DNA of 37,961 bases from an uncultured Alphaproteobacteria bacterium (GTDB taxonomy: Bacteria; Pseudomonadota; Alphaproteobacteria; CASFRQ01; SAAU01). The position numbers and the translations under genes are program-made. Shown in pieces: positions 10,910 to 31,638 of this stretch. Position 1 is the stretch's first letter, and each line of letters opens with the position of its first letter. The stretch lies in the NCBI GenBank assembly GCA_949296785.1, contig CASFRQ010000178.1:1-37961 (forward strand), read 5' to 3'. The notes under the pieces were generated by a model. That model searched no databases. It was not told the DNA's origin and worked only from the letters and a program-made list of their open reading frames with translations.

Positions 10910-13900
10910 TTAAATGGGTTCATCCTGCTGCAAACGATAAAAAATATCCTCCAAAACAGGCTGTTGAAATCCTTTTATAAAGAGCAAATCATTTTCTTCA
11001 AGTTCTTTTTTTAAAATGGATATTGTTTTTTCGTCTCTTTCTTCCCAAAAACCTTTCCGATCTTCTTCCAGTCGGTCATAAACCACCCTCAACCCGCGGC
11101 CAACGCAAAACACTTTATCAAAAATGCCCGAATCCAGCAGAGAAAGAAAAGACAAGTGTAACTCCTCGCTCTTTTTTCCCAAATCAGGGACTTCCTTTAA
11201 CAAAAGCAAGCGTCTGCCTCCAACGGTTTTCTCATAAGCGCATCCCTCCAAATATCCTCTAAGCGATGACAAAGAATACACCGACAAACCGGCTGCCACT
11301 GTTACTTTCTTGCCGCCGACAGACAAATCCTGCCGTATCTCCTTTACTTTTGGGAAGGAGTAATCGGAAAGCGCCGCCAAAGCATCCTCCATGGAAAAGT
11401 TCAACGCCTGCGCCGCCGCCAAAGCCGCCAAAGCATCTAATGCCCAAATTCTTCCGCCTCTTTTTAAAGAAAGCTCCGCCTCTTTTCCCGACAAGGAAAC
11501 ACGTGCCGAATATCCGGATTTATTGTGCTTTTCGTCATTTTCCTCCTTGTACGCGAAAGAAACGTCCGCTGCCGCAGATATCGCCGATTTTTCGGCAGAT
11601 TCCGAAAAGTCGGTGTTTTCCTGTCCCGAAGTTTCCGCATCAACGAAAACTTCCGAACGAACAGGCATTTCTGAAGATTCAAAATTTTCCGGATTTTTTC
11701 CGGCTTCCGGCGTCTCCTTGCCTGCAAGCGCCTCTGCCGGATTTTCCTTTTTCTCAGAAATGCCCTGAGGCTCTTCAAAAGAAAGCAGACGAAAATCCGC
11801 CCTAGGATGTTCACCGAAAGAAACAAAACGGTAAACCCCCATCAGAGAAATCGTTTTTACAAAATATTCATAGAAAGGGTCATCTCTGTTCAAAACGATC
11901 GTTCCGCCCGGCTTGACACCGCTGACAGCCTCGCTTAAAATTCTGGCAATAGCTTCTTCCGATTCATAAATATTCAGTTTATAGGAGCCGGTATTTAAAA
12001 TCAAAGCGACTTCTGGCTGAATAAAACAGGACAGAGACCTCATCTCCTCCGCCCCCGTCAATGGCATTTCCAACAGGGAATAATTCGTCGGCGCCTGTAT
12101 TTGCGCGACGGAACGCATCACGGAAACAAACGATAAAACCCGGTCGGCCGAAGAATAAACGCTTCCGCCCGATCTTAAAATTTGCGCCAACATACTTTTC
12201 ACACTCGTTTTTCCGGCAACTCCGGATAAAGTGACGAACGCCGACTGAGTCAATGTCCGCGCATAGGAAGCCAGCTGTTCCAACGCCGTTTCGGGATCGT
12301 TGACGATAAACAGTTTTGTGCTGTCCTTCTGGGCTGTTGGGATTTTCCGTACCACACAGGCGGCTGCGCCGTTCTGAAACGCCTGTTCCAAAAAATCATG
12401 CCCGTCTTTAAAACCACCCTTCAACGCGAAAAACAAATCACCCGTTTTGACAGTCCGACTGTCTACGGATAAGCCGTAAACCTTAAAATCCTCCCCGTAA
12501 ACGCCCCCTAAAATCTCTTTCAGTTCCCGTCCGGAATATAAAGGTTTTTTTTCCAAAGCCAACAACGCCGTCTGAGCTTCTATCCTGTCGTTAAATGGTA
12601 AAGTTTTGCCGTTGACAATCTGGCCTTCCTCATGGCCTTTGCCGGCAATAATCAGAACATCGTCTTTTTCAAGTTCCTCTATAGCCTGAGCAATCGCCTT
12701 GCGTCGGTCTCCGATTTCCCGACCCAGCTGGCAAGCCGCCAATATTTCCTGACGAATGGTTTTGGCATCTTCAAAACGCGGATTATCGTCGGTAATAATA
12801 ATTTTATCCGCCAGTCTTTGAGCGATTTTTCCCATTAAAGGCCTTTTGGTTTTATCCCGATTGCCGCCGCAGCCGAAAACAACCCACAGCTTTCTGCGCG
12901 TCAAAGGACGCATTGTTTTTAAAACATTTTCCAAAGCGTCGGGTGTATGAGCGTAATCCACATAAACCTTCGCGCCATTTTTCTTTTGCCCGACAAATTC
13001 CAGACGCCCCGGCGGGCTTTTTAGGCGACTGACGGCTTTTAAAGCCCTCTCAGGTTCCAACCCGGAACCGATAACCAACCCCAACGCACATAAAAGGTTC
13101 ATTATCTGAAAATCGCCGCTGACAGGAAAATCCACGGTATGTTCCTTACCCAAAACTTTTAAAGTCAAGCGGTAACCGACATTCAGTCTCTCTTCTTTCT
13201 CCAACAGGATATCCTCTCCGTGACGGCCATAGGATAAAACCCTCAGTCCCTTATTTAAACAAATGTTCTTAAGTTTTTCATATTCCGCGATATCGGCATT
13301 CAAAACGGCAGTTCCGTCCGGCTTAATATGTTCTTCAAAAAGCTTTGCTTTTGCCGCGAAGTAGCTTTCCATTGTTTTATGATAGTCCAGATGCTCTTCC
13401 GTCAGATTGGTAAACGCCGCCGCATCAAACATCATACCGTCCAGCCTTCCCTGGTCCAGTCCGGCGCTGGAAGCCTCCAAAGCCGCATGCGTCACTCCGG
13501 CTGAAGCCAATTCCTCCAAATCACGGTAAATCTCAACGCTTTCCGGCGTTGTTAAAGAAGTTTCTTTTTTTATTTTATCCGAAAAGACGCCGATAGTTCC
13601 GAAACTGGCCCCTTCAATGCCACTTTCTTTCCAAATCTGACGTTCAAAGTACACGGTGGAAGTTTTGCCGTTTGTTCCCGTTACCGCCGTCAAAACGGAC
13701 GGTATATCCTTATAAAACAAAGAAGCGGCCCGCGCCATCGCGGCACGAATACCGCCTTCGGCTTTAATCACCGGAACCGGCAAACCGTCAATCCATTCCG
13801 GGCTCAAAACAGCAATCGCCCCGTTTTGAACCGCCTGCCGGCTGTAAGTCTCTCCTTTATCCTTATCCGACGATAAATTGACAAACAAAAAACCCGGCTC

Positions 13901-13993
13901 AACCTGTCTTGAATCGGCGGTAATGCCTTTCACATCAACCCAGGAAATTTCCCTGTCGGCTTGCAGCCCTTTGACAAGATTTTCCAGAAGCAT
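10910..13993 (-). CDS. murE/murF: Single-ORF fusion of MurE (UDP-MurNAc-L-Ala-D-Glu--meso-DAP ligase, about aa 1-482) with a divergent MurF-like Mur ligase domain (about aa 483-1027)
   Basis: MurE half: TGTNGKTS, FTNLTEEHLDYH, AAKAKLF, VDYAHTPDAL, FGCGGNRDKTKRP, TDDNPRFE (DNPR, DAP-type) and AGKGHE. MurF-like half: VDSRTVKTGDLFFALKGGFKDGHDF and the P-loop LSGVAGKTSVK, but many MurF motifs are altered and there is an acidic insert of about 87 aa. There is no stop between the halves. AAAGGAG SD lies before ATG 13993. Confidence 0.9.
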   Translation of the reverse strand: MLLENLVKGLQADREISWVDVKGITADSRQVEPGFLFVNLSSDKDKGETYSRQAVQNGAIAVLSPEWIDGLPVPVIKAEGGIRAAMARAASLFYKDIPSVLTAVTGTNGKTSTVYFERQIWKESGIEGASFGTIGVFSDKIKKETSLTTPESVEIYRDLEELASAGVTHAALEASSAGLDQGRLDGMMFDAAAFTNLTEEHLDYHKTMESYFAAKAKLFEEHIKPDGTAVLNADIAEYEKLKNICLNKGLRVLSYGRHGEDILLEKEERLNVGYRLTLKVLGKEHTVDFPVSGDFQIMNLLCALGLVIGSGLEPERALKAVSRLKSPPGRLEFVGQKKNGAKVYVDYAHTPDALENVLKTMRPLTRRKLWVVFGCGGNRDKTKRPLMGKIAQRLADKIIITDDNPRFEDAKTIRQEILAACQLGREIGDRRKAIAQAIEELEKDDVLIIAGKGHEEGQIVNGKTLPFNDRIEAQTALLALEKKPLYSGRELKEILGGVYGEDFKVYGLSVDSRTVKTGDLFFALKGGFKDGHDFLEQAFQNGAAACVVRKIPTAQKDSTKLFIVNDPETALEQLASYARTLTQSAFVTLSGVAGKTSVKSMLAQILRSGGSVYSSADRVLSFVSVMRSVAQIQAPTNYSLLEMPLTGAEEMRSLSCFIQPEVALILNTGSYKLNIYESEEAIARILSEAVSGVKPGGTIVLNRDDPFYEYFVKTISLMGVYRFVSFGEHPRADFRLLSFEEPQGISEKKENPAEALAGKETPEAGKNPENFESSEMPVRSEVFVDAETSGQENTDFSESAEKSAISAAADVSFAYKEENDEKHNKSGYSARVSLSGKEAELSLKRGGRIWALDALAALAAAQALNFSMEDALAALSDYSFPKVKEIRQDLSVGGKKVTVAAGLSVYSLSSLRGYLEGCAYEKTVGGRRLLLLKEVPDLGKKSEELHLSFLSLLDSGIFDKVFCVGRGLRVVYDRLEEDRKGFWEERDEKTISILKKELEENDLLFIKGFQQPVLEDIFYRLQQDEPI

Positions 13994-18048: not shown

Positions 18049-18540
18049 ATGAGATTTTTAGCAATCATTTTTTCTGCCGTTTTACAACTTTGCTTTCTGA
18101 CCTCTCCGGTTTTGGCCCAAGAAAACAAGGAAAAACTGGCGCAGATACAGGAATTTAAGAACGATTTGGAAAGCTGCGAAAAAAGAATGTGGGATACGTT
18201 GCGTCAAAAATACGATGGTCTGTCACAGGACAATACGCCGGACAGGCAAATCGTCATAAATAAAATAACTTGTTACGAAGCCGTCGGGAATAAAGTCATT
18301 GATACCTTTTATTCCCATACCAATGAAGAGATGAAAAAGAAGTTTGACACACTTATTCGGGCTTTTTCCGTTTTTTACGGAGATTTATATGCTTACAATG
18401 CCGCCTGCTATAATCCTGATCCAGACAATTTTCAAATTTGCGGGAATATAGCTCTGGATTTTTCTGCTTCCGCTAGTACTGAGTTTGTAAAAAATACTGT
18501 TATAGAGATGTTGAACTATACGGAAAGTTTTTATAAATAA
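18049..18540 (+). CDS. Secreted small Cys-containing protein of unknown function, tandem paralog 1
   Basis: 163 aa. Strong AAGGAGG SD. Sec-type signal peptide ending VLA|QEN. Four Cys in the mature part (C43, C75, C120, C131). Its mature region is 88 percent identical to the next ORF. Confidence 0.8.
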   Translation: MRFLAIIFSAVLQLCFLTSPVLAQENKEKLAQIQEFKNDLESCEKRMWDTLRQKYDGLSQDNTPDRQIVINKITCYEAVGNKVIDTFYSHTNEEMKKKFDTLIRAFSVFYGDLYAYNAACYNPDPDNFQICGNIALDFSASASTEFVKNTVIEMLNYTESFYK

Positions 18541-18560: not shown

Positions 18561-19055
18561 ATGAAATTTTTAACTCTTATCGTTTTATCAACTCTATCGG
18601 TATTTTTTACGCCTTCCTTGGTTTTGGCCCAAGAAAACAAGGAAAAACTGGCGCAGATACAGGAATTTAAGAATGATTTGGAAAGCTGCGAAAAAAGAAC
18701 GTGGGATACTTTGCGTCAAAAATACGACGGTTTGTCTCAGGATAATACGCCGGACAGACAAATCGTCATAAATGAAATAACTTGTTACGAAATTGTCGGA
18801 AATAAAGTCATTGATACCTTTTATTCCCATACGAATGAAGAAATGAAAAAGAAGTTTGACACACTTATCCGGGCTTTTTCCGTTTTTTATGGAGAGTTAT
18901 ATGCTTATAATGCCGCCTGCTATAATCCAGGTCCTAAAAATCGCAAAATTTGCGGGAACATCGCTCTGGATTTTGCCACGGCCGCAGATGACAATTTTGT
19001 TAAAAATACTATCATGGATATGTTGAATTATACGGAAAGTTTTTATAAAGATTAA
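18561..19055 (+). CDS. Secreted small Cys-containing protein of unknown function, tandem paralog 2
   Basis: 164 aa. Same AAGGAGG SD context, signal peptide ending VLA|QEN, and the same four Cys positions as paralog 1. Confidence 0.8.
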   Translation: MKFLTLIVLSTLSVFFTPSLVLAQENKEKLAQIQEFKNDLESCEKRTWDTLRQKYDGLSQDNTPDRQIVINEITCYEIVGNKVIDTFYSHTNEEMKKKFDTLIRAFSVFYGELYAYNAACYNPGPKNRKICGNIALDFATAADDNFVKNTIMDMLNYTESFYKD

Positions 19056-19094: not shown

Positions 19095-20174
19095 TTAGTA
19101 AGAATAGGCGTCCACCCTGTTCATCCATCCGTCATGGAATTTCTGTTTTTCTGGATTTTCCTTTATTTTTTGAAGGAAATATTCTTTTGTTGCCTGTTTA
19201 TATTTTTCTATAATTTCCAACATTTCCTCTTCGGTCTTATTTTCCAAAGCTTTCATGGTTGCGGGGCCTATAATCGTCCCGGGCTTGATTCCCAGAATAG
19301 TATGAAGCCTTTGTATCGCAGCCACATGATGGTTGATTGCCATACTAAGGACAAGGCTGGCCAATCGTTCATCTTTAATATTATCTATATGAAAATATTT
19401 ATAAAAATCATTATAAAAAATCAGATCCGCCCGGTCATGCGTCATATTTTTAATATCTTCATTCGGGTACCAGCGTTTTGAAATTCCCATATTCGTTTCT
19501 TTTCCAGGATCTTCAGGGATATTTACATATCCCCCTTCCGCCTCCCTGATAGGAGGCATTATCCTGTCAAATTTTTCATCATCCATCCGGTCATAAACCA
19601 TTCCCGGCTTCATGCCTTGCCCATATTTTTGATAATACTCTCTCTTATGCAAGAGCTCAGAAGGTATTGGAACGGGAAGAGGAATAACTTTCTTGGGCGG
19701 AGGAACAGGCAAAGGAATCTCTTTTGCGCCAAAGGGTCCATACTCAAAAAATCTTATCTTTTTCTGAGGGTTATCGGAAAGCTCCTTTTTCAACATATCA
19801 TTTGCTTTATCCTCATAGCGGGCATTGTTTTCAGACAGATATAAATTCTCTCCGTTAGGAAAACCTGTAAACGCCCCCGGATAATTCGTGTTTTCTTTTT
19901 GTAAATTCGTATTCATTCCCTGTATTTTATTGGGATAAAACTGAAAAAGCAAGTCCTTCGTCAAGGAGGCAGTTGTTGGTTCCATTTTAATAAAATTGAA
20001 AGAATTAGGTTCTAAAGATTTCAATATTTCCTTATTAAAATTTTTTTTTAATTCAATTCTCAGATCCGAATCTCCCGGTTCTATTTTATAGAATTGAGCT
20101 TCTCCCAAACCGGCTTCGTCAAACAAAGCCTCCAAAACCTCTCTTGTCGTCATATCTTTTGTTAAGTTTACCAT
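19095..20174 (-). CDS. GH108-type N-acetylmuramidase with a PG_binding_3-like C-terminus, fused to an unrecognised N-terminal region of about 150 aa and a Pro-rich linker; no signal peptide
   Basis: The C-terminal half has REAEGGYVNIPEDPGKETNMGIS (the EGGY...DPGG.T..GI signature of GH108 lysozymes), then IIGPATMKAL and HDGWMNRV (the peptidoglycan-binding tail typical of this family). I prefer ATG 20174 (MVNLTKD, AGGAG 7 nt upstream) over the track start at 20261. Confidence 0.8.
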   Translation of the reverse strand: MVNLTKDMTTREVLEALFDEAGLGEAQFYKIEPGDSDLRIELKKNFNKEILKSLEPNSFNFIKMEPTTASLTKDLLFQFYPNKIQGMNTNLQKENTNYPGAFTGFPNGENLYLSENNARYEDKANDMLKKELSDNPQKKIRFFEYGPFGAKEIPLPVPPPKKVIPLPVPIPSELLHKREYYQKYGQGMKPGMVYDRMDDEKFDRIMPPIREAEGGYVNIPEDPGKETNMGISKRWYPNEDIKNMTHDRADLIFYNDFYKYFHIDNIKDERLASLVLSMAINHHVAAIQRLHTILGIKPGTIIGPATMKALENKTEEEMLEIIEKYKQATKEYFLQKIKENPEKQKFHDGWMNRVDAYSY

Positions 20175-20304
20175 AATTTTTCTCCTTCTATTTAAAATAA
20201 AAAATCTTAACAAGAATAAAAATATCCATATTTCAAGCATAATATTCTTATAAAGAATCATTTAACGAAGCCTTATTCATTTCCTATAAAGACACAAAAG
20301 AAAA

Positions 20305-20405: not shown

Positions 20406-23400
20406 CTATTTTTCGCAAACCAGAGGCGGTTGAGAAATCTGTTCCTCCGCCAGCTTTTTAGCGGAAATATAGTCAAACTTCCCGGAGCCTAAAAGAGGCG
20501 GATTATTTTGATATAAAATTTTCTTCGGGATAGAAATTTCAGGCATTCCCTTTTGTTTAAACAGAGTCGTCAAAGCCTCCACCGTTATATCGGAAGAAGA
20601 AGTAATCAGCACCATCTGTTCACCTTTTTTCGCATCCGGAATACTGACAACGCCATGGATAAAACCGTCCCATTTTTCCGAGATAACACCCTCCACCGCT
20701 GTCAAAGACACCATCTCACCGCCGATTTTTGCAAACCTCTTGGAACGGCCTTTGATAAAGATATATCCGTCCTCGTCAATATACACAATATCGCCGGTAT
20801 CGTACCAGCCGTCTTCAACCGGCTCCAAAACTCCCGGGTTCGTCGCACGCATATATCCCAACATAACATTCGGACCTTTTAAGATAAGTTCCTGTCCTTC
20901 TTTAATACCGTCAATTTCCTTCAGCTTATACGCCATATCCGGCAAAAGAATACCGACGGAACCTTTAGCCGTAAACAAAGGCGTGTTAATGGAAATCACC
21001 GGAGAACACTCCGTCGCGCCGTACCCTTCCAAAATACGAATACCAAATTTTTCACTCCAAAGACGACGGGTTTCATCCTTGACTTTTTCCGCCCCGCTGA
21101 CCAACAGACGTAATGTGTTGAAATCATACGGATTGGCGCATTTGGCGTAACCGGCCAGGAAAGTATCCGTCCCGAACATAATTGTCGCCTTGGCGTAGTT
21201 GCAAAGTTCCGGAATAATGCGGTAATGCAAAGGCGTCGGATAAAACACCATCTTCACCCCGATAACCAAAGGCAAGAAAGTCGCCGCCACCAAGCCGAAA
21301 GAATGGAACATCGGCAAGCAGTTTAACACAATATCTTCCGGGAAAACATCCACACGGCACACCGCCTGATAGGCGTTGGATAAAATATTTTTATGAGAAA
21401 GAAGAACCGCCTTCGGCATCCCTTCGGAACCGGAGGTAAAAAGGACAACCGCCGGATCCGAAGCCTTTGCCGGTAACAGGCGGCTCGTCCGTCTATACAG
21501 TGTCAACGGCGCCAACGCCCCAAACAAGCCCAGCAGTTTTACCTTTAAATTCAAATTCTTCCTTAAACTTTCCAACCGCAAAACCTGAATACCTTCCGCC
21601 TCCAGGGCTTCCACCAGAGAATCCAGCTTGCCGAGCGTAATCACCTTCTGCGCGGTAATAATCGTTTTTACTCCCGCTGTTTTGCAAGTACTGATTACCT
21701 GTACCGGACCGGAGGAAAAATTCAGCATCGCGGGAACATGTCCGAACGCCTGCAACCCCAAAATCGTCAACAAAGCCGTGTTTGAAGTCGGCAGCAAAAC
21801 CCCGACCGGCTCCCTTGTCTTTGGCAAAGCATCATGCATCAGTTTTCCCAAGACAAAGGATTTTAAGAAAAGCTCCTGAAAAGCCATCGGCTTTTTCTCG
21901 GTATCTTCAATAATTTTCTTAAAACGGCCAGAAAATTTCATTGTTTTTGTTACCGCCTCAAAAACAGTCTGATCCGTTTCATAGGCTTCAAAGCTCATTT
22001 GAGAAAGAAGCTTATAAAGGACAACAGCCGTTTTCAATCTCTTTTCCCTCATAGACAAACTTTGATAAGCGGGAAGAAAGACCGGCTCCTTCACCTCCAG
22101 ACTGATATGAGGGAAAAATTCAATATGCGCCTCGCGCCGGACACGGGAAAAAACGGAATGCTTCGCCCCTTTAATCAGAATGGGGACAAACGCCGCCCGC
22201 GCCTTTTCAGCCATCAAAGCCGGCACTTCATAAATTTTCATCTGCGTGTGAGCCAGGGAAACTTCGTTTTCCACAAAGAACATACACAGCTTGTCCTGCC
22301 TCAGTTCTTCAACCATAATTTTTACAGCCTCAAACGGATTGCTCGGATCCAAAGGCTTAACCTTCAATAAACTCAAAAAAGGCAATGTCCACCACTTGTC
22401 CAAAATCGCCTGAGAAACGCCGAAAGTAATTTGCTCCGGCACAAAAACGGAAATTAAAAGCGCGTCCAGGTAAGAGGTATGGTTCGTAACAATAAGAGCT
22501 CGTTTTCCCGCCTTCGCCAGATTTTCAAGTCCCGTAACTCTTGCCTTAAACAGAAATTTCAAAATGGATTTCAAAAGCCTCCTCTTTGACCCTTCCGGCA
22601 AAATTTGGAACATATAAAAGGCGAAAACAAAGTTTGCCAAAGCATACAAACCGTAAATAACCCCCGTTTCCACAAACAAATAAGTCAAAGACAAGGTAAT
22701 AATCAACGAAGAAGCGACCGCCACGGCGTTCATCATATTGCTTAAAGACAAAATCTGACTAAAAGTCTTCTCTTCCCCTTGTCTTTGAAGCAAAGTATAC
22801 AATACCGTCGCATAGCAAGAAAAACACATCCCGATCATAAAAGCATCCGCCAAAAGCCGGATATTCGCCAAAGACATCAAGAACTGCCCGGCGTTCATTT
22901 CCAACGAATAAACGAAAATCCCCGAACTGCCCCACACAAAATCCGCCAAAAAAACAGACACGACCATCAAAGAAAAAGGCGCCAGCAGAATAGCGGTCTT
23001 CTCCTTCATCTTTCCAAGGAACAAAGCGCCGAGCAACGCGCCCGCCGCCAAAAATCCCAAAAACAAAACAGCGACTGAGAAAGAAGAAAATAAAATATCC
23101 CGCACATACGCATGAAATGTAAAAAGAAACGCCGCCCCCATAAACCACATCCAGGAGATACCGGCCATGCAGGTTAAAACAGGTTTTGCCTCGCGGTTTT
23201 TAAAAATATAGTCCTTCAAAGAGGAGGAAGGCGTTCTTCCCAACTTCAAACTCGGCAGAACCCCTTTTTGCGCCGGCACGCGCAAAGCATTGAAAAAACC
23301 GAATACCGAAAAAACCAGTGCCAAAACAAAAACACTCGGCATATAAAAATCCGCCAAGTCATTAAAATACACCAAAAGGTTGGCTATGAAAAAAGCCCCG

Positions 23401-23840
23401 AACACACTTGCCTTTACCCAGATATTGCACAAATACAGCTCATCTTTTTTCAACCCCCTCGCAAACAAGGAATAGGTTAAAATCCTTGAAAAACAAGCTT
23501 TTATCCCCAGCCCGGCGATCGCCAGAATAAGAAGAAACCTTCCCCCCTCAAAAGAACCGAAGGCCGCCGCGCACATTAAAACGATTTCAAAAGCCTTCGT
23601 CCACAAAAGAACTTTAGTCCCGGAATATTTATCGCAAACCTGCCCGGCAATCGGCGAAAAAAGAAGGAAAGAAAGAAAATACAAAGCATAAACAATAAAG
23701 AGCTGATAAGCTTGATCCTTAAAAACGCTGTATGTCAAAGTAAAGACAAACAAATTCTGAAGGAGAGATGCGGCGAAAGTACCGCTTACCTGCGCCAGAT
23801 AAAGAGGAAGAAAATTTTTATTCTTAAAGAGGGTCAACAT
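20406..23840 (-). CDS. aas: Fused lysophospholipid transporter (MFS, LplT-like) / 2-acyl-GPE acyltransferase / acyl-ACP synthetase (Aas-like)
   Basis: 1144 aa. The N-terminal ~420 aa are polytopic and MFS-like. Then come a PlsC-type HX4D motif (NHTSYLDA) and an adenylate-forming domain (LFTSGSEGMPKAV, YGATE, GWYDTGD). Confidence 0.88.
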   Translation of the reverse strand: MLTLFKNKNFLPLYLAQVSGTFAASLLQNLFVFTLTYSVFKDQAYQLFIVYALYFLSFLLFSPIAGQVCDKYSGTKVLLWTKAFEIVLMCAAAFGSFEGGRFLLILAIAGLGIKACFSRILTYSLFARGLKKDELYLCNIWVKASVFGAFFIANLLVYFNDLADFYMPSVFVLALVFSVFGFFNALRVPAQKGVLPSLKLGRTPSSSLKDYIFKNREAKPVLTCMAGISWMWFMGAAFLFTFHAYVRDILFSSFSVAVLFLGFLAAGALLGALFLGKMKEKTAILLAPFSLMVVSVFLADFVWGSSGIFVYSLEMNAGQFLMSLANIRLLADAFMIGMCFSCYATVLYTLLQRQGEEKTFSQILSLSNMMNAVAVASSLIITLSLTYLFVETGVIYGLYALANFVFAFYMFQILPEGSKRRLLKSILKFLFKARVTGLENLAKAGKRALIVTNHTSYLDALLISVFVPEQITFGVSQAILDKWWTLPFLSLLKVKPLDPSNPFEAVKIMVEELRQDKLCMFFVENEVSLAHTQMKIYEVPALMAEKARAAFVPILIKGAKHSVFSRVRREAHIEFFPHISLEVKEPVFLPAYQSLSMREKRLKTAVVLYKLLSQMSFEAYETDQTVFEAVTKTMKFSGRFKKIIEDTEKKPMAFQELFLKSFVLGKLMHDALPKTREPVGVLLPTSNTALLTILGLQAFGHVPAMLNFSSGPVQVISTCKTAGVKTIITAQKVITLGKLDSLVEALEAEGIQVLRLESLRKNLNLKVKLLGLFGALAPLTLYRRTSRLLPAKASDPAVVLFTSGSEGMPKAVLLSHKNILSNAYQAVCRVDVFPEDIVLNCLPMFHSFGLVAATFLPLVIGVKMVFYPTPLHYRIIPELCNYAKATIMFGTDTFLAGYAKCANPYDFNTLRLLVSGAEKVKDETRRLWSEKFGIRILEGYGATECSPVISINTPLFTAKGSVGILLPDMAYKLKEIDGIKEGQELILKGPNVMLGYMRATNPGVLEPVEDGWYDTGDIVYIDEDGYIFIKGRSKRFAKIGGEMVSLTAVEGVISEKWDGFIHGVVSIPDAKKGEQMVLITSSSDITVEALTTLFKQKGMPEISIPKKILYQNNPPLLGSGKFDYISAKKLAEEQISQPPLVCEK

Positions 23841-26641: not shown

Positions 26642-27940
<1,299 letters not shown>

Positions 27941-27977
27941 TTTCCATTCGGAAATCCTTTTTGATTTCGGATAGGAG

Positions 27978-28006
27978 AACTCCCCTGTAAAAAGGGGAGT
28001 TTTTTT
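27978..28006 (+). terminator. Rho-independent terminator after eno
   Basis: AACTCCCCT (27978-27986), loop GTAAAA, AGGGGAGTT (27993-28001), followed by a T run. Confidence 0.85.
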
Positions 28007-29023
28007 ACCGTTTACTTCAGAACGACAAAAGGGTAATCGCTGTTTTTTAAACTCACAGCCGTACGAAGAAAAACATCCTTTTCAATATAAAATTATTTTC
28101 CAGGGAAAACCCAATTGCTGTTTTCCAACGCAGAATACGACCTAACAGCGGAGGAAGAAAGTTTCAGCCCCCAACATTATCACTACTTCTCCAACATAGC
28201 ATACTCCAAGAAGATCAATATAATCGGATTATCCGAGTTTAAAAACCTGAGCCTTTTGCATATCCGAATATATTTTTGACATATCCTTCAATAAAAACCA
28301 ATCGGCAGATGAGGAAAGCGTCCGCGAAAAACCGCAAAACAATTGCTTTTAATTTTGCCTTCATTGACAAAAAGTATTTTACGCTCCCTTCTTATTTTTT
28401 ACCATGCCCTATATCCTTTACACATTTTGCTTCGTCTGCCATAAAAAAATCAGCAGAAACATATCATATTTTATAAATGTCCTTATTTTCAAAATTTCAG
28501 AATGTGAGTGTCTTATTCCCTTCAAAAACCGTTAAGGATTTTAACGGCCGAGAAACAAAAACGCCTTGCCAAACACCTTCCGAAACGAATATGGGAAATT
28601 TGGAAGAAACTTCCTCTGATTACCAATATTTTCCCGAAAAAAGAAGGCACGGACACCGTAACCCCTCAAAATTCATCATTTATATGATTGAAGAAAGGAA
28701 CGATTAAAACGAATAAATTCCGCTATAACAGGTATCAAAAATAAAATTCTTAAGATTTCTGACCATACAATTCTCCCCTTTTTATATTTTTCAGAAAAGT
28801 CAAAAAGTATCGTCCTTTTTTAATAAAAAAAGACAAGAACCGAAAATAAAATTTTGGAGAAGAGCAGAATTATAAAAAGCAAAAATCAAAACGATAAAAG
28901 AAAACTATCGCAGTTATTTTACAAAAATACCTTAAAACCAAAATAATAAAAATAAAACTTGATAATACACTGAAATTTTAATATTTTTTAGAAAGATATT
29001 GTGAGAAATCCAATATCTCGGGC

Positions 29024-29131
29024 GTAGTAACCCGCTTCATTATAACCATCCGCGAGGGTGGAGATTGACGAATAAGGAATTTTCCGAATAAGTCAAACTG
29101 CTTTATAATGATAGGTTACTACTCTCCACCC
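29024..29131. repeat. Compound inverted-repeat / pseudoknot-capable element
   Basis: GTAGTAACC (29024-29032) pairs with GGTTACTAC (29114-29122). TCATTATAA (29037-29045) pairs with TTATAATGA (29103-29111). GGGTGGAGA (29056-29064) pairs with TCTCCACCC (29123-29131). All three are perfect 9-mers. The third pair crosses the first two. Confidence 0.6.
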
Positions 29132-29273
29132 GCCTTTGATGCTTTCTTTCGGATAATCCTCCAAATTTTGAATTTTTTCATGCTTCTTCTTCGGTTTCAA
29201 CGGAAGAATATGTTTTTATTTCCAGAACCTTCCAATTTTTTTGTAATAAAAAAGAAGCTTTTCTTTAGATATC

Positions 29274-29429
29274 TTATATTTTTTCAGGACAATTCACTTG
29301 GGCCAATATTTTTCCCATAGCCACATTGTAACCGGCTAAACCTCCGACAGACAGGACACTGATGATAGGCAACACGCCTAACATTTCTATCATACTGCGC
29401 CCGGATTGAGTTGTTCCTCTTCTATTCAT
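29274..29429 (-). pseudogene. Type IV pilin-like gene fragment: leader plus N-terminal hydrophobic helix only (51 codons, then a stop)
   Basis: Below the ORF-track size cutoff. AGAGGA SD lies 6 nt upstream of ATG 29429. Translation: MNRRGTTQSGRSMIEMLGVLPIISVLSVGGLAGYNVAMGKILAQVNCPEKI-stop. It has a basic leader, a Gly, and a Glu five residues after that Gly, followed by a hydrophobic helix. No globular domain follows. Confidence 0.55.
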
Positions 29430-29621
29430 TTTTATCCTCTTTTATTTCTTTTAGAAGGAAACAAAACAAGAGAGGAAGAAAATAAAAAAGAGGTAAGCAA
29501 CCATCCTGACAAACCATTTAAAATAAAGCTCCAAAAAGGCGAACCATGGTAGAGATGCTCAATGTCTTAACCATTATCGGTTTTGCCAGTCGGCGGCTTA
29601 GCCGGTTACAGTATGGCCATG
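29316..29621. repeat. Imperfect inverted repeat formed by the two pilin N-terminal coding segments, flanking a 240-bp promoter/leader segment
   Basis: Arms are 29316-29393 and 29546-29621. The 21-nt core GTCGG[A/C]GG[T/C]TTAGCCGGTTAC lies at 29328-29348 (minus sense) and 29589-29609 (plus sense), with 19/21 identical and the same codon phase in both copies. Confidence 0.8.
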
Positions 29622-30023
29622 CAGAAGATTAGGATTAACAAAGTGATTGAAGAGATTCAAATACTTTCTTCTTTTTTTAATGAATTCAGCCTCAACTATA
29701 AAAAAGGAAACGAGAATTTTAATTATCGCGATTATGCCGATTCTTCCCATTTGGCTGAAGCACTGGCCACTGCAGGAGGAAAACGGTCCAGTATAGGAAG
29801 TAGTTGGGAGGAAAACTCTTCTTATTACCTGGATTTAACAAACATTTCCAACGAATTATGCTTATCTTTCATTTCACAACTTGATGACGGAACAGGTCCT
29901 ATCAGAGTAGGAAACACGGAATCTGCAAGGCCCAAGCTTAATTCTGAAGAAGCCAGGAACATATGTCAAAAAGAGGAAGACGCCGACGGTTTAAATATTT
30001 TTTTATATTTTGGATACAGATAA
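29546..30023 (+). pseudogene. Type IV pilin-like gene body lacking a functional leader/start (frameshifted decayed N-terminus plus an intact 146-codon body)
   Basis: Track ORF 29583..30023 starts inside the pilin helix (LPVGGLAGYSMAMQKIRINKVIEEIQ...) and has a C-terminal Cys pair (ELC...NIC). Frame-shifted upstream (29546-29588) is KRRTMVEMLNVLTIIG, a decayed copy of the helix start. It is separated from the body by a 2-nt length difference relative to the minus-strand copy and has no leader Met/Gly. Confidence 0.5.
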
Positions 30024-30288
30024 AAAATCTTATATAAGGTCATAAAATCAGCGAAAACATCACCTCTTCTTTTTATATTCAAAAAAACAAAGAACGACTT
30101 TCTGTTTTTTTCTCTTTTTTCCAACATTGCCTTAAAAGTAATTTCTGAGGCCTTTTGCGCTTTATCAAACCTAAAAAACAATAGACAGGAAAGAGTTTTT
30201 CGCTTAATCTGGCGAAAACGGAATTTTCGGTAAGAAAGAGAATCATCTTTCTTAAACAGTAAAAACTTTCAGCGGGCAAAATACGGAA

Positions 30289-31638
30289 ATGAGAAAGCTT
30301 TTTTTTCTTTTAATACTATGGATGACAGCAGTGGCAGGTTTGCCGGCTTTCTTCTTCCCCGAACAGGCGCAGGCGGCAAGAATCAAGGCCGCACTTATTG
30401 CCGATGCAGACAGCGGCTATGTCCTTTACGCGGACAAAGCGGATGAGGAAATATATCCCGCCTCCTTAACCAAGCTGATGACTTTGTATTTGACCTTCCA
30501 GGCCTTGGACAACGGCGTTTTAAGGATGGAGGACGAACTTTTGATTTCCAAAAAAGCGGCGGCGAAACCCGCCTCCAAAATCTACTTAAAGCCCGAAACC
30601 ACCCTGACCGTCAAAGAGGCCGTCATGGCCCTCATCGTCAAGTCCGCCAATGATGTGGCGGCCGTGTTGGGGGAGGCTTTGGCCGGTTCCGAAGAAGAGT
30701 TTGCCGACATGATGACAAAAGCGGCGCATGATTTGGGCATGAACAGGACGGTTTTTAAAAACGCCTCCGGTCTGCATCATAAAAAGCAAGTTTCCACCGC
30801 AAGGGATATGGCGGTTTTGGCCTTGGCGCTCATTAACCATTTTCCGCAGTATTATCCGCTTTTCACGACAAAAGTCGCCACCATTCAAGGAAAAATCTAC
30901 GGTAATCACAACAACATCATCCGCCTGTACAAAGGGGCGGAAGGGTTAAAAACCGGCTATTTGAATGCTTGCGGTTATCATGTCATTTCCACCTGCCGAA
31001 AAAAAGATATGCGCCTTGTGGCCGTCAGCCTGGGGCAACCTTCCGTCAAAGCCAGGGACGACAGCATGGTCAAACTGCTGGACAAAGGCTTCAAAAAAAT
31101 GGAAGAGTTGCGCGCCAAACAAAAGGATACTGCGGCAAAAGACAATCCTTTTAAAAAGCGCCCTGTTTTAAATGAAACGGATAAAAAAAACTATTTGCCG
31201 AAAATGCGCGCCTCCGTCCAGTTGATGAAAGAGGATATCCTTTCTTTAAAAAACACCCGGCAAATCGCTTTGCCGGCCGATAAAACCGGCGGACTTAAAA
31301 ATCAAAAAATCTCTCTGCCTTTGCAAGGGGACAACGAATCGTACTGGCAGGTACAGGCAGGTGCCTACGCTTCTTTGCCGACGGCTCTAAAAAAAGCGCA
31401 GAATATTGAGCAAATGATGGGAGAAACGGGAATTGTGCAAATCCTGCCCTTCGGAGATTTATGGCGAGTTCGCATTTTCGGCCTGGAAAATGAAAAAAAA
31501 GCTCTGGAAGTTTCTAGACTTTTGCAAAAAAATAAATTACCTTGTTTTATCATCGCTCCCAAAACCGATGGGAACAAAGACGCTCCAAACGGGGAAACGG
31601 AATACCCGTCCCTGCTGATTAAAAAGGATGAAAAATGA
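30289..31638 (+). CDS. D-alanyl-D-alanine carboxypeptidase (S11, PBP5/6-like) with a C-terminal SPOR domain
   Basis: 449 aa with a signal peptide. Contains SxxK (ASLTK), SxN (KSAND) and KTG (LKTGY). The C-terminal YWQVQAGAYASLPTALKKAQ...WRVRIFGLENEKKALEV is SPOR-like. Confidence 0.88.
   Translation: MRKLFFLLILWMTAVAGLPAFFFPEQAQAARIKAALIADADSGYVLYADKADEEIYPASLTKLMTLYLTFQALDNGVLRMEDELLISKKAAAKPASKIYLKPETTLTVKEAVMALIVKSANDVAAVLGEALAGSEEEFADMMTKAAHDLGMNRTVFKNASGLHHKKQVSTARDMAVLALALINHFPQYYPLFTTKVATIQGKIYGNHNNIIRLYKGAEGLKTGYLNACGYHVISTCRKKDMRLVAVSLGQPSVKARDDSMVKLLDKGFKKMEELRAKQKDTAAKDNPFKKRPVLNETDKKNYLPKMRASVQLMKEDILSLKNTRQIALPADKTGGLKNQKISLPLQGDNESYWQVQAGAYASLPTALKKAQNIEQMMGETGIVQILPFGDLWRVRIFGLENEKKALEVSRLLQKNKLPCFIIAPKTDGNKDAPNGETEYPSLLIKKDEK

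Follow-up and report, generated by a model that had tools for sequence, protein, structure and literature searches.

A probable fixed inversion inactivating a type IVb-like pilin paralog in an uncultured alphaproteobacterium

Introduction

The tfpQ/tfpI locus of Moraxella bovis and M. lacunata carries two alternative pilin bodies on a 2.1-kb segment inverted by Piv, whilst the promoter and the 5' end of the gene stay fixed; piv lies adjacent and both orientations are found. In Escherichia coli the fimS segment is non-coding and 314 bp long, with 9-bp perfect repeats, the tyrosine recombinases FimB and FimE are encoded adjacent to it, and both orientations occur in every population. Here we describe a locus with a similar outward appearance, a type IV pilin-like gene split into two halves on opposite strands and carrying an inverted repeat in the helix-coding parts of both. 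It lies on a stretch of 37,961 nucleotides from an uncultured gut bacterium of the Alphaproteobacteria (GenBank assembly GCA_949296785.1, contig CASFRQ010000178.1), which is called the window below. An earlier account made from the letters of the window, here termed the sequence-only reading, took the locus for a phase-variation switch caught in the OFF orientation, and allowed that a single ancient inversion could have killed the gene.

The locus resembles the Moraxella system in that the crossover falls in phase inside the conserved N-terminal coding region of the pilin, and inversion joins a 5' cassette to a body. The likeness is limited to this placement. Unlike the Moraxella segment, that of the window is ~245 bp long, carries the promoter and 5' end and faces one body only; no recombinase lies in the window, and one orientation only is seen in at least 20 contigs. 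The locus is like fimS in the size of the segment, a small promoter-bearing one whose orientation decides expression of a pilus subunit, whereas the non-coding segment, the 9-bp perfect repeats, the adjacent recombinases and the two orientations of fimS were not found at the window locus. A further parallel is with pseudogenes formed by rearrangement, in which a reciprocal exchange between short inverted paralogous coding stretches is fixed and both products are relaxed. The homology here is unusually short for such cases (13 nt perfect, 19/21 in the core), and, unlike in typical homologous-inversion pseudogenes, one partner would already have been a relic, so that one gene was lost. The locus belongs to an ordinary class, that of genes inactivated when inverted paralogous repeats recombine homologously and flip the segment between them. 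Taken together, the evidence makes it likely that a fixed ancestral inversion inactivated one pilin paralog, and that the locus is a decaying pseudogene rather than a working switch. The fallback of the sequence-only reading, the single ancient inversion, thus fits best, in view of the mosaic and the fixed arrangement set out below.

Results

A reciprocal mosaic against an intact paralog

The layout put forward by the sequence-only reading holds in its details (Table 1). The minus-strand half has a Shine-Dalgarno (SD) sequence, start codon, leader and helix, and ends early as a stub; the plus-strand half is a pilin body with neither leader nor ATG, preceded by a decayed and frameshifted helix start. 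We call X the gene to which the preserved 5' end and the body would belong, and Y the relic that would account for the remainder. The 5' end of X retains all of the family-invariant residues. The 5' end of Y has lost both its leader and Gly-1, and five invariant residues are changed in it (G-1R, S2T, I4V, G8N and S17P). The stray T takes the place of the family's Val codon and shifts the frame between KRRTMVEMLNVLTIIG and the body, whilst upstream of KRRT the plus frame contains three in-frame stops and no usable start. Programmed frameshifting, or an internal ATG at 29546, was considered as a start for the body and rejected, as that frame stops after 29 codons.

Both copies were aligned by codons to the P0002 gene (L001:6001-6552), P0002 being the closest intact paralog. 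Over codons -1 to 18 the stub agrees with P0002 at 55/60 nt and the plus copy at 39/60; over codons 19 to 27 each agrees at 21/27 nt; over codons 28 to 40 the figures are 13/39 for the stub and 32/39 for the plus copy. The affinity of the stub's 5' end is specific, in that five other paralogs match it at 42-45/60 nt and its leader is the P0002 leader save for one codon indel. Its tail matches all paralogs at 11-16/39 nt, which is approximately random. Conversely, the plus 5' fragment is equidistant from every intact paralog (36-39/60 nt), and codons 28-40 of the plus copy match the other paralogs at 24-29/39 nt. Within codons 19-27 the stub and the plus copy are closest to each other (23/27). 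Fisher's exact test gave p=1e-9 when the stub's 5' end was compared with its tail, and p=2.5e-5 when the stub tail was compared with the plus-copy tail. In the stub and the plus copy alike, the transition from intact-like to decayed sequence therefore falls within one common 27-nt interval, its polarity being reversed between the two, and the intact-like 5' half and the intact-like body have the same nearest relative, P0002.

The disabling lesions, comprising the lost start, the three stops, the frameshift and the five broken invariant residues, all lie in ~100 nt of the plus 5' fragment, and there are none in the 144-codon (432-nt) body. Uniform decay is disfavoured because the lesions are confined in this way. 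The reciprocal mosaic implies one reciprocal crossover and hence that the inversion did occur. On the strength of this alignment an exchange between the two copies would appear really to have happened, and independent decay of two genes fails to explain the mosaic.

Table 1. Features of the pilin block, in window coordinates
Feature	Position	Strand	Description
Entire pilin block	29138..30165		Insertion or deletion between species
Stub ORF (open reading frame)	29274-29429	minus	51 codons; reads MNRRGTTQSGRSMIEMLGVLPIISVLSVGGLAGYNVAMGKILAQVNCPEKI to its stop
Tail of relic Y, read today behind the 5' end of X	29274..29315	minus	Ends ..GKILAQVNCPEKI, then stop
Minus arm of inverted repeat, with putative crossover interval	29316..29348	minus	Core 29328-29348; crossover placed within 29319-29345
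5' end of pilin gene X, separated from its body	29349..29429	minus	Start codon, leader MNRRGTTQS (9 residues), Gly-1, R+1 to S+17 of alpha-1
Short intergenic region within inverted segment	29430..29533		SD of X, remnant of the 5' untranslated region of X, decayed SD and leader region of relic Y
SD of stub and gene X	29435-29440	minus	AGAGGA
Decayed 5' end of relic Y	29534..29588	plus	KRRTMVEMLNVLTIIG (29534-29581), stray T (29582), then LP
Plus-strand body ORF	29583-30023	plus	146 aa; sole opening codon TTG
Plus arm of inverted repeat, with putative crossover interval	29589..29621	plus	Core 29589-29609; crossover placed in codons 19-27, 29592-29618
Body of gene X	29622..30023	plus	Remainder of alpha-1 and globular domain; stop 30021-30023

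Strain survey

Nine more contigs, drawn from separate ENA and Logan assemblies, are collinear with the window across the block at 96.6-99.6% identity and form six haplotypes together with it; the same stray T frameshift is found in the strain contigs. Cluster look-ups recovered the leaderless body as 11 protein variants from 14 contigs, open in all 11, and the stub as 7 variants from 20 contigs. A 285-aa 'member' of the stub cluster (P0133) was set aside as a methionine aminopeptidase, spuriously assigned. The stub exists in the OFF orientation only, and contigs encoding it are therefore counted as OFF. No fused protein was present among 5.8 billion protein clusters, nor, except for the cluster of the 146-aa body, was anything above 54% identity. 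The two orientations of an inversion switch were consequently not seen in the ten collinear contigs or the 20 stub contigs, and with ON in 0 of the 20 an ON-majority state lies below ~14% at 95% confidence; these counts rest on assemblies, which give the majority orientation only. The ON orientation would be marked by the junction GTGTCCTGTCTGTCGGMGGYTTAGCCGGTTACAGTATGGCC and its reciprocal. Neither the body junction nor the 5' end of the stub turned up when metagenome contigs of the Joint Genome Institute (JGI) were scanned, which is uninformative as the organism is not in that collection.

Comparison with related genomes, one of the follow-ups proposed by the sequence-only reading, favours a plain pseudogene over a switch, with the inversion retained on account of the mosaic. 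In a related species (contig L012; DacC 82% identical) the sequences corresponding to 28940-29137 and 30166-30315 are conserved with only ~80 nt between them, and the pilin block is absent. L012 was the sole close syntenic outgroup located through DacC in GTDB genomes; the distant ones keep dacC-bamD-recN and have no pilin at the site. The sequence-only reading had also held that relatives with the same arrangement and further decay would make the locus a pseudogene, and such relatives exist. Some strains have Arg in place of a Gly of the invariant helix GG (29592), some have His at a conserved aromatic position (30006), and the stub is 51 or 71 aa long depending on the strain, since its stop moves with an A6/A7 run.

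Selection and diversity

The purifying selection to be expected of a switched gene was not found. In the body, 9 replacement and 4 silent segregating sites give a ratio of nonsynonymous to synonymous polymorphism (pN/pS) of 0.67, against 0.00-0.11 in the neighbouring genes: 0.00 in eno (0 replacement and 23 silent sites), 0.05 in dacC, 0.06 in recN and 0.11 in bamD. The intact paralog P0002, which is present in three of the samples holding the locus, shows nine differences between strain groups, 9/9 of them synonymous (replacement versus silent changes in the body and in P0002, Fisher p=0.0017). Nucleotide diversity (pi) ranges over 0.003-0.03 within the block and is highest, at 0.030, in the 5' end of relic Y. 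Among 10 strains the intergenic region has one segregating site, and the minus arm of the repeat core has none.

The inverted repeat

The core of the repeat is 19/21 identical, with the two arms in the same codon phase, as the sequence-only reading had it. A repeat search gave a longer repeat of 38 nt, 82% identical (29316-29353 and 29584-29621). Both arms share a perfect 13-nt stretch, TTAGCCGGTTACA, which differs from P0002 at 3 nt. When the window was probed with a degenerate pilin N-terminus, these two sites and one 3-mismatch match elsewhere were found, the chance expectation being 0.27. Paralogous coding sequence fully accounts for the repeat, which is probably the homologous 5' coding sequence of head-to-head paralogs rather than a site dedicated to recombination. 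In this pilin family, where head-to-head layout is common, an inverted repeat over the N-terminal codons arises automatically.

The segment between the halves and the stub tail

Upstream of X, only the proximal ~47 nt of the family-conserved 5' region is left, and 12 nt of the CAYATTTAACGG motif common to P0002, P0004 and P0062 are deleted. A consensus promoter scan upstream of the stub yielded no convincing match. The tail of relic Y shows no homology to any pilin beyond about codon 30, and a tblastn search of 27950-29310 with 120 family proteins found no decayed pilin body downstream of the stub (best E ~1). The logic of two alternative bodies, by which the sequence-only reading had likened the locus to Piv and the shufflons, accordingly fails, as there is one body only and the 17-codon stub tail has no pilin homology.

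The fused protein and its family

Joining the two halves in silico does rebuild one intact gene of 171 codons, as had been proposed, and leaves all the lesions collected in one junk fragment. The 171-aa product is 53-54% identical to intact relatives in alignments that take in 99% of its length, and it retains 23/23 family-invariant residues, including both Cys of the body (29859-29861 and 29964-29966). As a query it returned 4,817 proteins, nearly all from metagenome-assembled genomes (MAGs) of uncultured Alphaproteobacteria, mostly of gut or rumen. Many members of the family carry Pfam PF05307 (Bundlin) and PF08805 (PilS). The N-terminus is invariant, with Gly-1 followed by RSMIEMLGVLAIIGVLSVGG (RSMIEMLGVL.I..VLSVGG..Y after the Gly in an alignment of 36 sequences), as are two Cys; a literature search for this N-terminal motif found no paper. 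The stub shows the features of a class III signal, MNRRGTTQSG followed by RSMIEMLGVLPIISVLSVGGLAGY, with G10, E15 and the helix residues invariant in the 36 aligned members. The sequence-only reading had regarded Arg after the Gly as making the leader atypical. Arg+1 is invariant across the alignment and is therefore a trait of the family, not a defect of the window copy.

The sequence-only reading had also suggested modelling the fused protein and searching it against profile models. An AlphaFold 2 (AF2) model of the fusion has a pilin-like fold, with a helix at residues 29-61 followed by an alpha/beta domain (predicted local distance difference test 78.8, predicted template modelling score 0.71). 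The Pfam N_methyl model gave no match at E<=10. NCBIfam models of prepilin-peptidase-dependent proteins stayed below threshold (E=7e-4 to 0.04; 14-20 bits against cut-offs of 138-158), and on Pfam PilS the window protein alone reached E=0.03 at best. The family profile matches the type IVb pilin bundlin BfpA (PDB 1zwt) with E=2.6e-6, whilst the best PDB matches of the fusion model in Foldseek, TcpA, CofA and PilS, are weak (E 0.04-0.3, template modelling score 0.4-0.5). The alpha-1 helix set on an alpha/beta domain in the AF2 model, the invariant Cys pair and the profile match to BfpA are those of a type IVb fold. Like BfpA, TcpA, CofA and the PilS of Salmonella Typhi and R64, the family has Gly-1, Glu+5, a hydrophobic alpha-1 and a C-terminal Cys pair; it is unlike them in its invariant Arg+1 N-terminus, in lacking an N_methyl match, in being encoded by dispersed genes of many copies and in having no assembly genes seen nearby. 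The family is clearly type IVb-like, very large, unnamed and uncharacterised.

Its genes lie scattered over housekeeping loci, singly or in head-to-head pairs, with many copies per genome, and one MAG holds at least 11 paralogs among the top matches of the fusion search. The closest intact relatives, P0002, P0003, P0006 and P0007, are solo genes at unrelated housekeeping loci. On contig L011 an intact head-to-head pair, P0062 and P0004, lies 218 bp apart and has a 122-nt inverted repeat (79%) over the N-terminal codons. Contigs L021 and L022 contain one intact head-to-head pair each, with the first 45 residues identical within the pair and an N-terminal inverted repeat of the kind seen on L011. 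An inverted 5' relic upstream of the gene, which would have hinted at a conserved switch architecture, was sought at other paralog loci (L001-L006, L008-L010) and found at none of them. Intact paralogs with differing leaders (P0002, P0003 and P0004) have a nearly identical upstream region of ~140 nt (on L001, L008 and L011), which carries a palindromic TAAACGACCGTTTAAA-like motif and CTCTTCTTTTGTTCACATTTAACGGTCATTAAAA, for example at L011 3912-3966 and 4075-4129. This region probably serves the pilin genes of the family as a shared promoter or regulator site.

Surroundings of the locus

Pfam scans of 20 window ORFs identified housekeeping genes, namely those of the dcw cluster, tpiA, secG, kdsA, eno, dacC, bamD, recN and ligA. 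In agreement with the sequence-only reading, the same scans found no recombinase gene within the 38-kb window, and none lies beside the intact head-to-head pairs of L011, L021 and L022. Neither a prepilin peptidase nor assembly ATPase or platform genes were found within the 38-kb window; a PilM_2 match was rejected as a pilus-assembly gene, as it belongs to FtsA. Rfam searches of the window at gathering thresholds, and of 27900-30300 in E-value mode, gave sub-threshold noise only.

The edges of the pilin block, 29138-29150 and 30146-30165, are recurrent breakpoints. In contig L034 the DNA to the left of 29151 is unrelated, consisting of the end of an rluA-like gene and an HTH_3 gene; on that content its differing left flank was dismissed as a recombinase candidate. 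A Logan contig of 1,011 nt (L035) has very nearly the extent of the block (29136-30146), suggesting within-sample strain heterogeneity in the block flanks.

A structured element of ~130 nt, of no known family, lies at 29010-29139 (plus strand), with copies on L001 (5647-5791, minus strand), 210 nt upstream of the P0002 gene, and on L012 (74-205). Window 28990-29150 folds at -48.8 kcal/mol (z=-4.2). Between two paralogous copies at least three helices are kept by compensatory changes (CCAUCC/GGGUGG against CCGUCC/GGGCGG; UUGAC/GUCAA against UUGG/CCAA), and there is a long-range pairing, GGGYGGAGA/UCUCCRCCC. The element has no Rfam match, and a covariance model built from it finds these loci only, among 23 sources. 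Its 3' end is the left edge of the pilin block and coincides with the L012 and L034 breakpoints.

Downstream of eno, 27941-28939 is a stretch of ~1 kb in which GC is 32% and no ORF reaches 100 aa. Its pi among four strains is 0.0027, far below that of synonymous sites in flanking genes (0.04-0.13), and it contains no Rfam match at the gathering threshold and no pilin remnants. Elsewhere in the window, 18049-18540 and 18561-19055 (plus strand) encode two paralogs in tandem, 163 and 164 aa long, whose N-termini resemble signal peptides and for which Pfam has no match; they sit in a patch of 37% GC and adjoin a GH108/PG_binding_3 protein (19095-20261, minus strand). An ARAGORN call of tRNA-SeC at 20590-20680 (minus strand) falls inside a 1144-aa MFS/acyltransferase/AMP-binding ORF (20406-23840) and is probably a false positive, Rfam having no tRNA match there. 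In the dcw cluster a single 1027-aa ORF (10910-13993, minus strand) has two Mur ligase domain sets and looks like a murE-murF fusion.

Discussion

The order of events may be pictured as follows. The ancestral state would have been a head-to-head pair of type IVb-like pilin genes, a layout which is intact elsewhere in the family. Partner X, on the plus strand, would have been a gene of 171 codons and a close paralog of P0002, whilst partner Y, originally on the minus strand, would already have shrunk to a decayed 5' fragment of ~30 codons. A single reciprocal crossover between the inverted helix-coding copies, in codons 19-27 (29319-29345 and 29592-29618), would then have flipped ~245 bp (about 29346-29591), comprising the 5' untranslated region, SD, start codon and leader of X and its first 18 mature codons. 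The recombination was presumably homologous and not enzyme-directed. As an outcome the expression signals of X would drive a stub of 51 or 71 codons, the body of X would stand behind the dead 5' end of Y, and the product is presumably non-functional. The inversion would be older than the common ancestor of all the sampled strains, in which it is fixed, and the body would now be drifting.

Several observations weigh against this account. The 13 segregating sites of the body are compatible with an omega of ~0.3-0.5 (P=0.13-0.43), and its ORF is uninterrupted in 11/11 variants. Diversity is 0.013 in the body and 0.003-0.007 in the stub 5' end and intergenic region, less than the 0.04-0.13 of synonymous sites in the flanking genes, and this counts against the account because fully neutral DNA would not be expected to show it; a lower mutation rate of the AT-rich block, or a separate genealogy, may be responsible. 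The recombinase search covers the 38-kb window, so that a distant invertase may exist, and a minority ON population would not be seen in assemblies.

An alternative view is that the locus is an active ON/OFF phase switch, in which the ~245-bp promoter and leader segment flips reversibly, ON giving the 171-aa prepilin and OFF the stub, with OFF dominating in the gut. A flip would certainly yield a complete gene with every family-invariant residue and a confident pilin-like model, yet ON was seen in none of at least 20 contigs (an ON fraction <14% at 95% confidence) and no second body is available. The body ORF is intact in all variants and block diversity lies below that of neighbouring synonymous sites; against this stand its pN/pS and the changes at invariant or conserved residues in some strains. 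Variation within the block is lowest in the repeat core and at the 5' end of the stub, but the repeat is no more than 19/21 identical, with a perfect stretch of 13 nt, and can be read simply as coding sequence shared by paralogs. Furthermore, neither the window nor the surroundings of the intact head-to-head pairs yielded a recombinase, the upstream region of X is without the family's conserved distal promoter region and has the 12-nt deletion, and a related species lacks the whole block. A switch caught OFF, as first proposed, is thus quite unlikely. In a variant of this view, flipping would occur at low frequency, through RecA-type recombination on the 13-21-nt core or an unlinked invertase that recognizes the invariant helix-coding sequence of the family, which would make the locus a contingency switch strongly biased to OFF. 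On a wider view, the many head-to-head pairs of the family, with N-terminal inverted repeats of ~120 nt, could be a general device by which gut Alphaproteobacteria swap expression cassettes between pilin bodies; we regard this reading as very unlikely.

The other alternatives dispense with a flip altogether. Divergent paralogs might have decayed independently, a deletion removing the body of the minus gene and point mutations destroying the 5' end of the plus gene. Head-to-head pairs are natural in the family, deletions and point decay are common and the arrangement is stable in all strains, but the coincidence of the two transitions in one 27-nt interval with opposite polarity would then have to be accidental, as would the sharing of P0002 as nearest paralog by the pristine 5' end and the pristine body, and the plus gene would have at least four disabling lesions crowded into ~100 nt, with 432 nt free of them. 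This course of events appears unlikely. A mis-join might be suspected in that the window is a MAG contig and assemblers can be confused by inverted repeats. The junctions are identical in ten contigs from separate ENA and Logan assemblies and six haplotypes, however, and a 21-nt repeat is shorter than typical assembly k-mers or reads, so that the probability of an artefact is negligible.

Implications

On the preferred explanation, a fixed inversion, the switch-like layout is the fossil of a single event, and the result is mainly a cautionary and clarifying one. Testing for a reciprocal mosaic against an intact paralog provides a simple way of separating a switch from a fossil by sequence alone. 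The 5' ends of the family are so highly conserved that they act as substrates for rearrangement. Should its pilins form surface filaments in the gut, the gain, loss and scrambling of its paralogs may shape surface variation at the level of strains.

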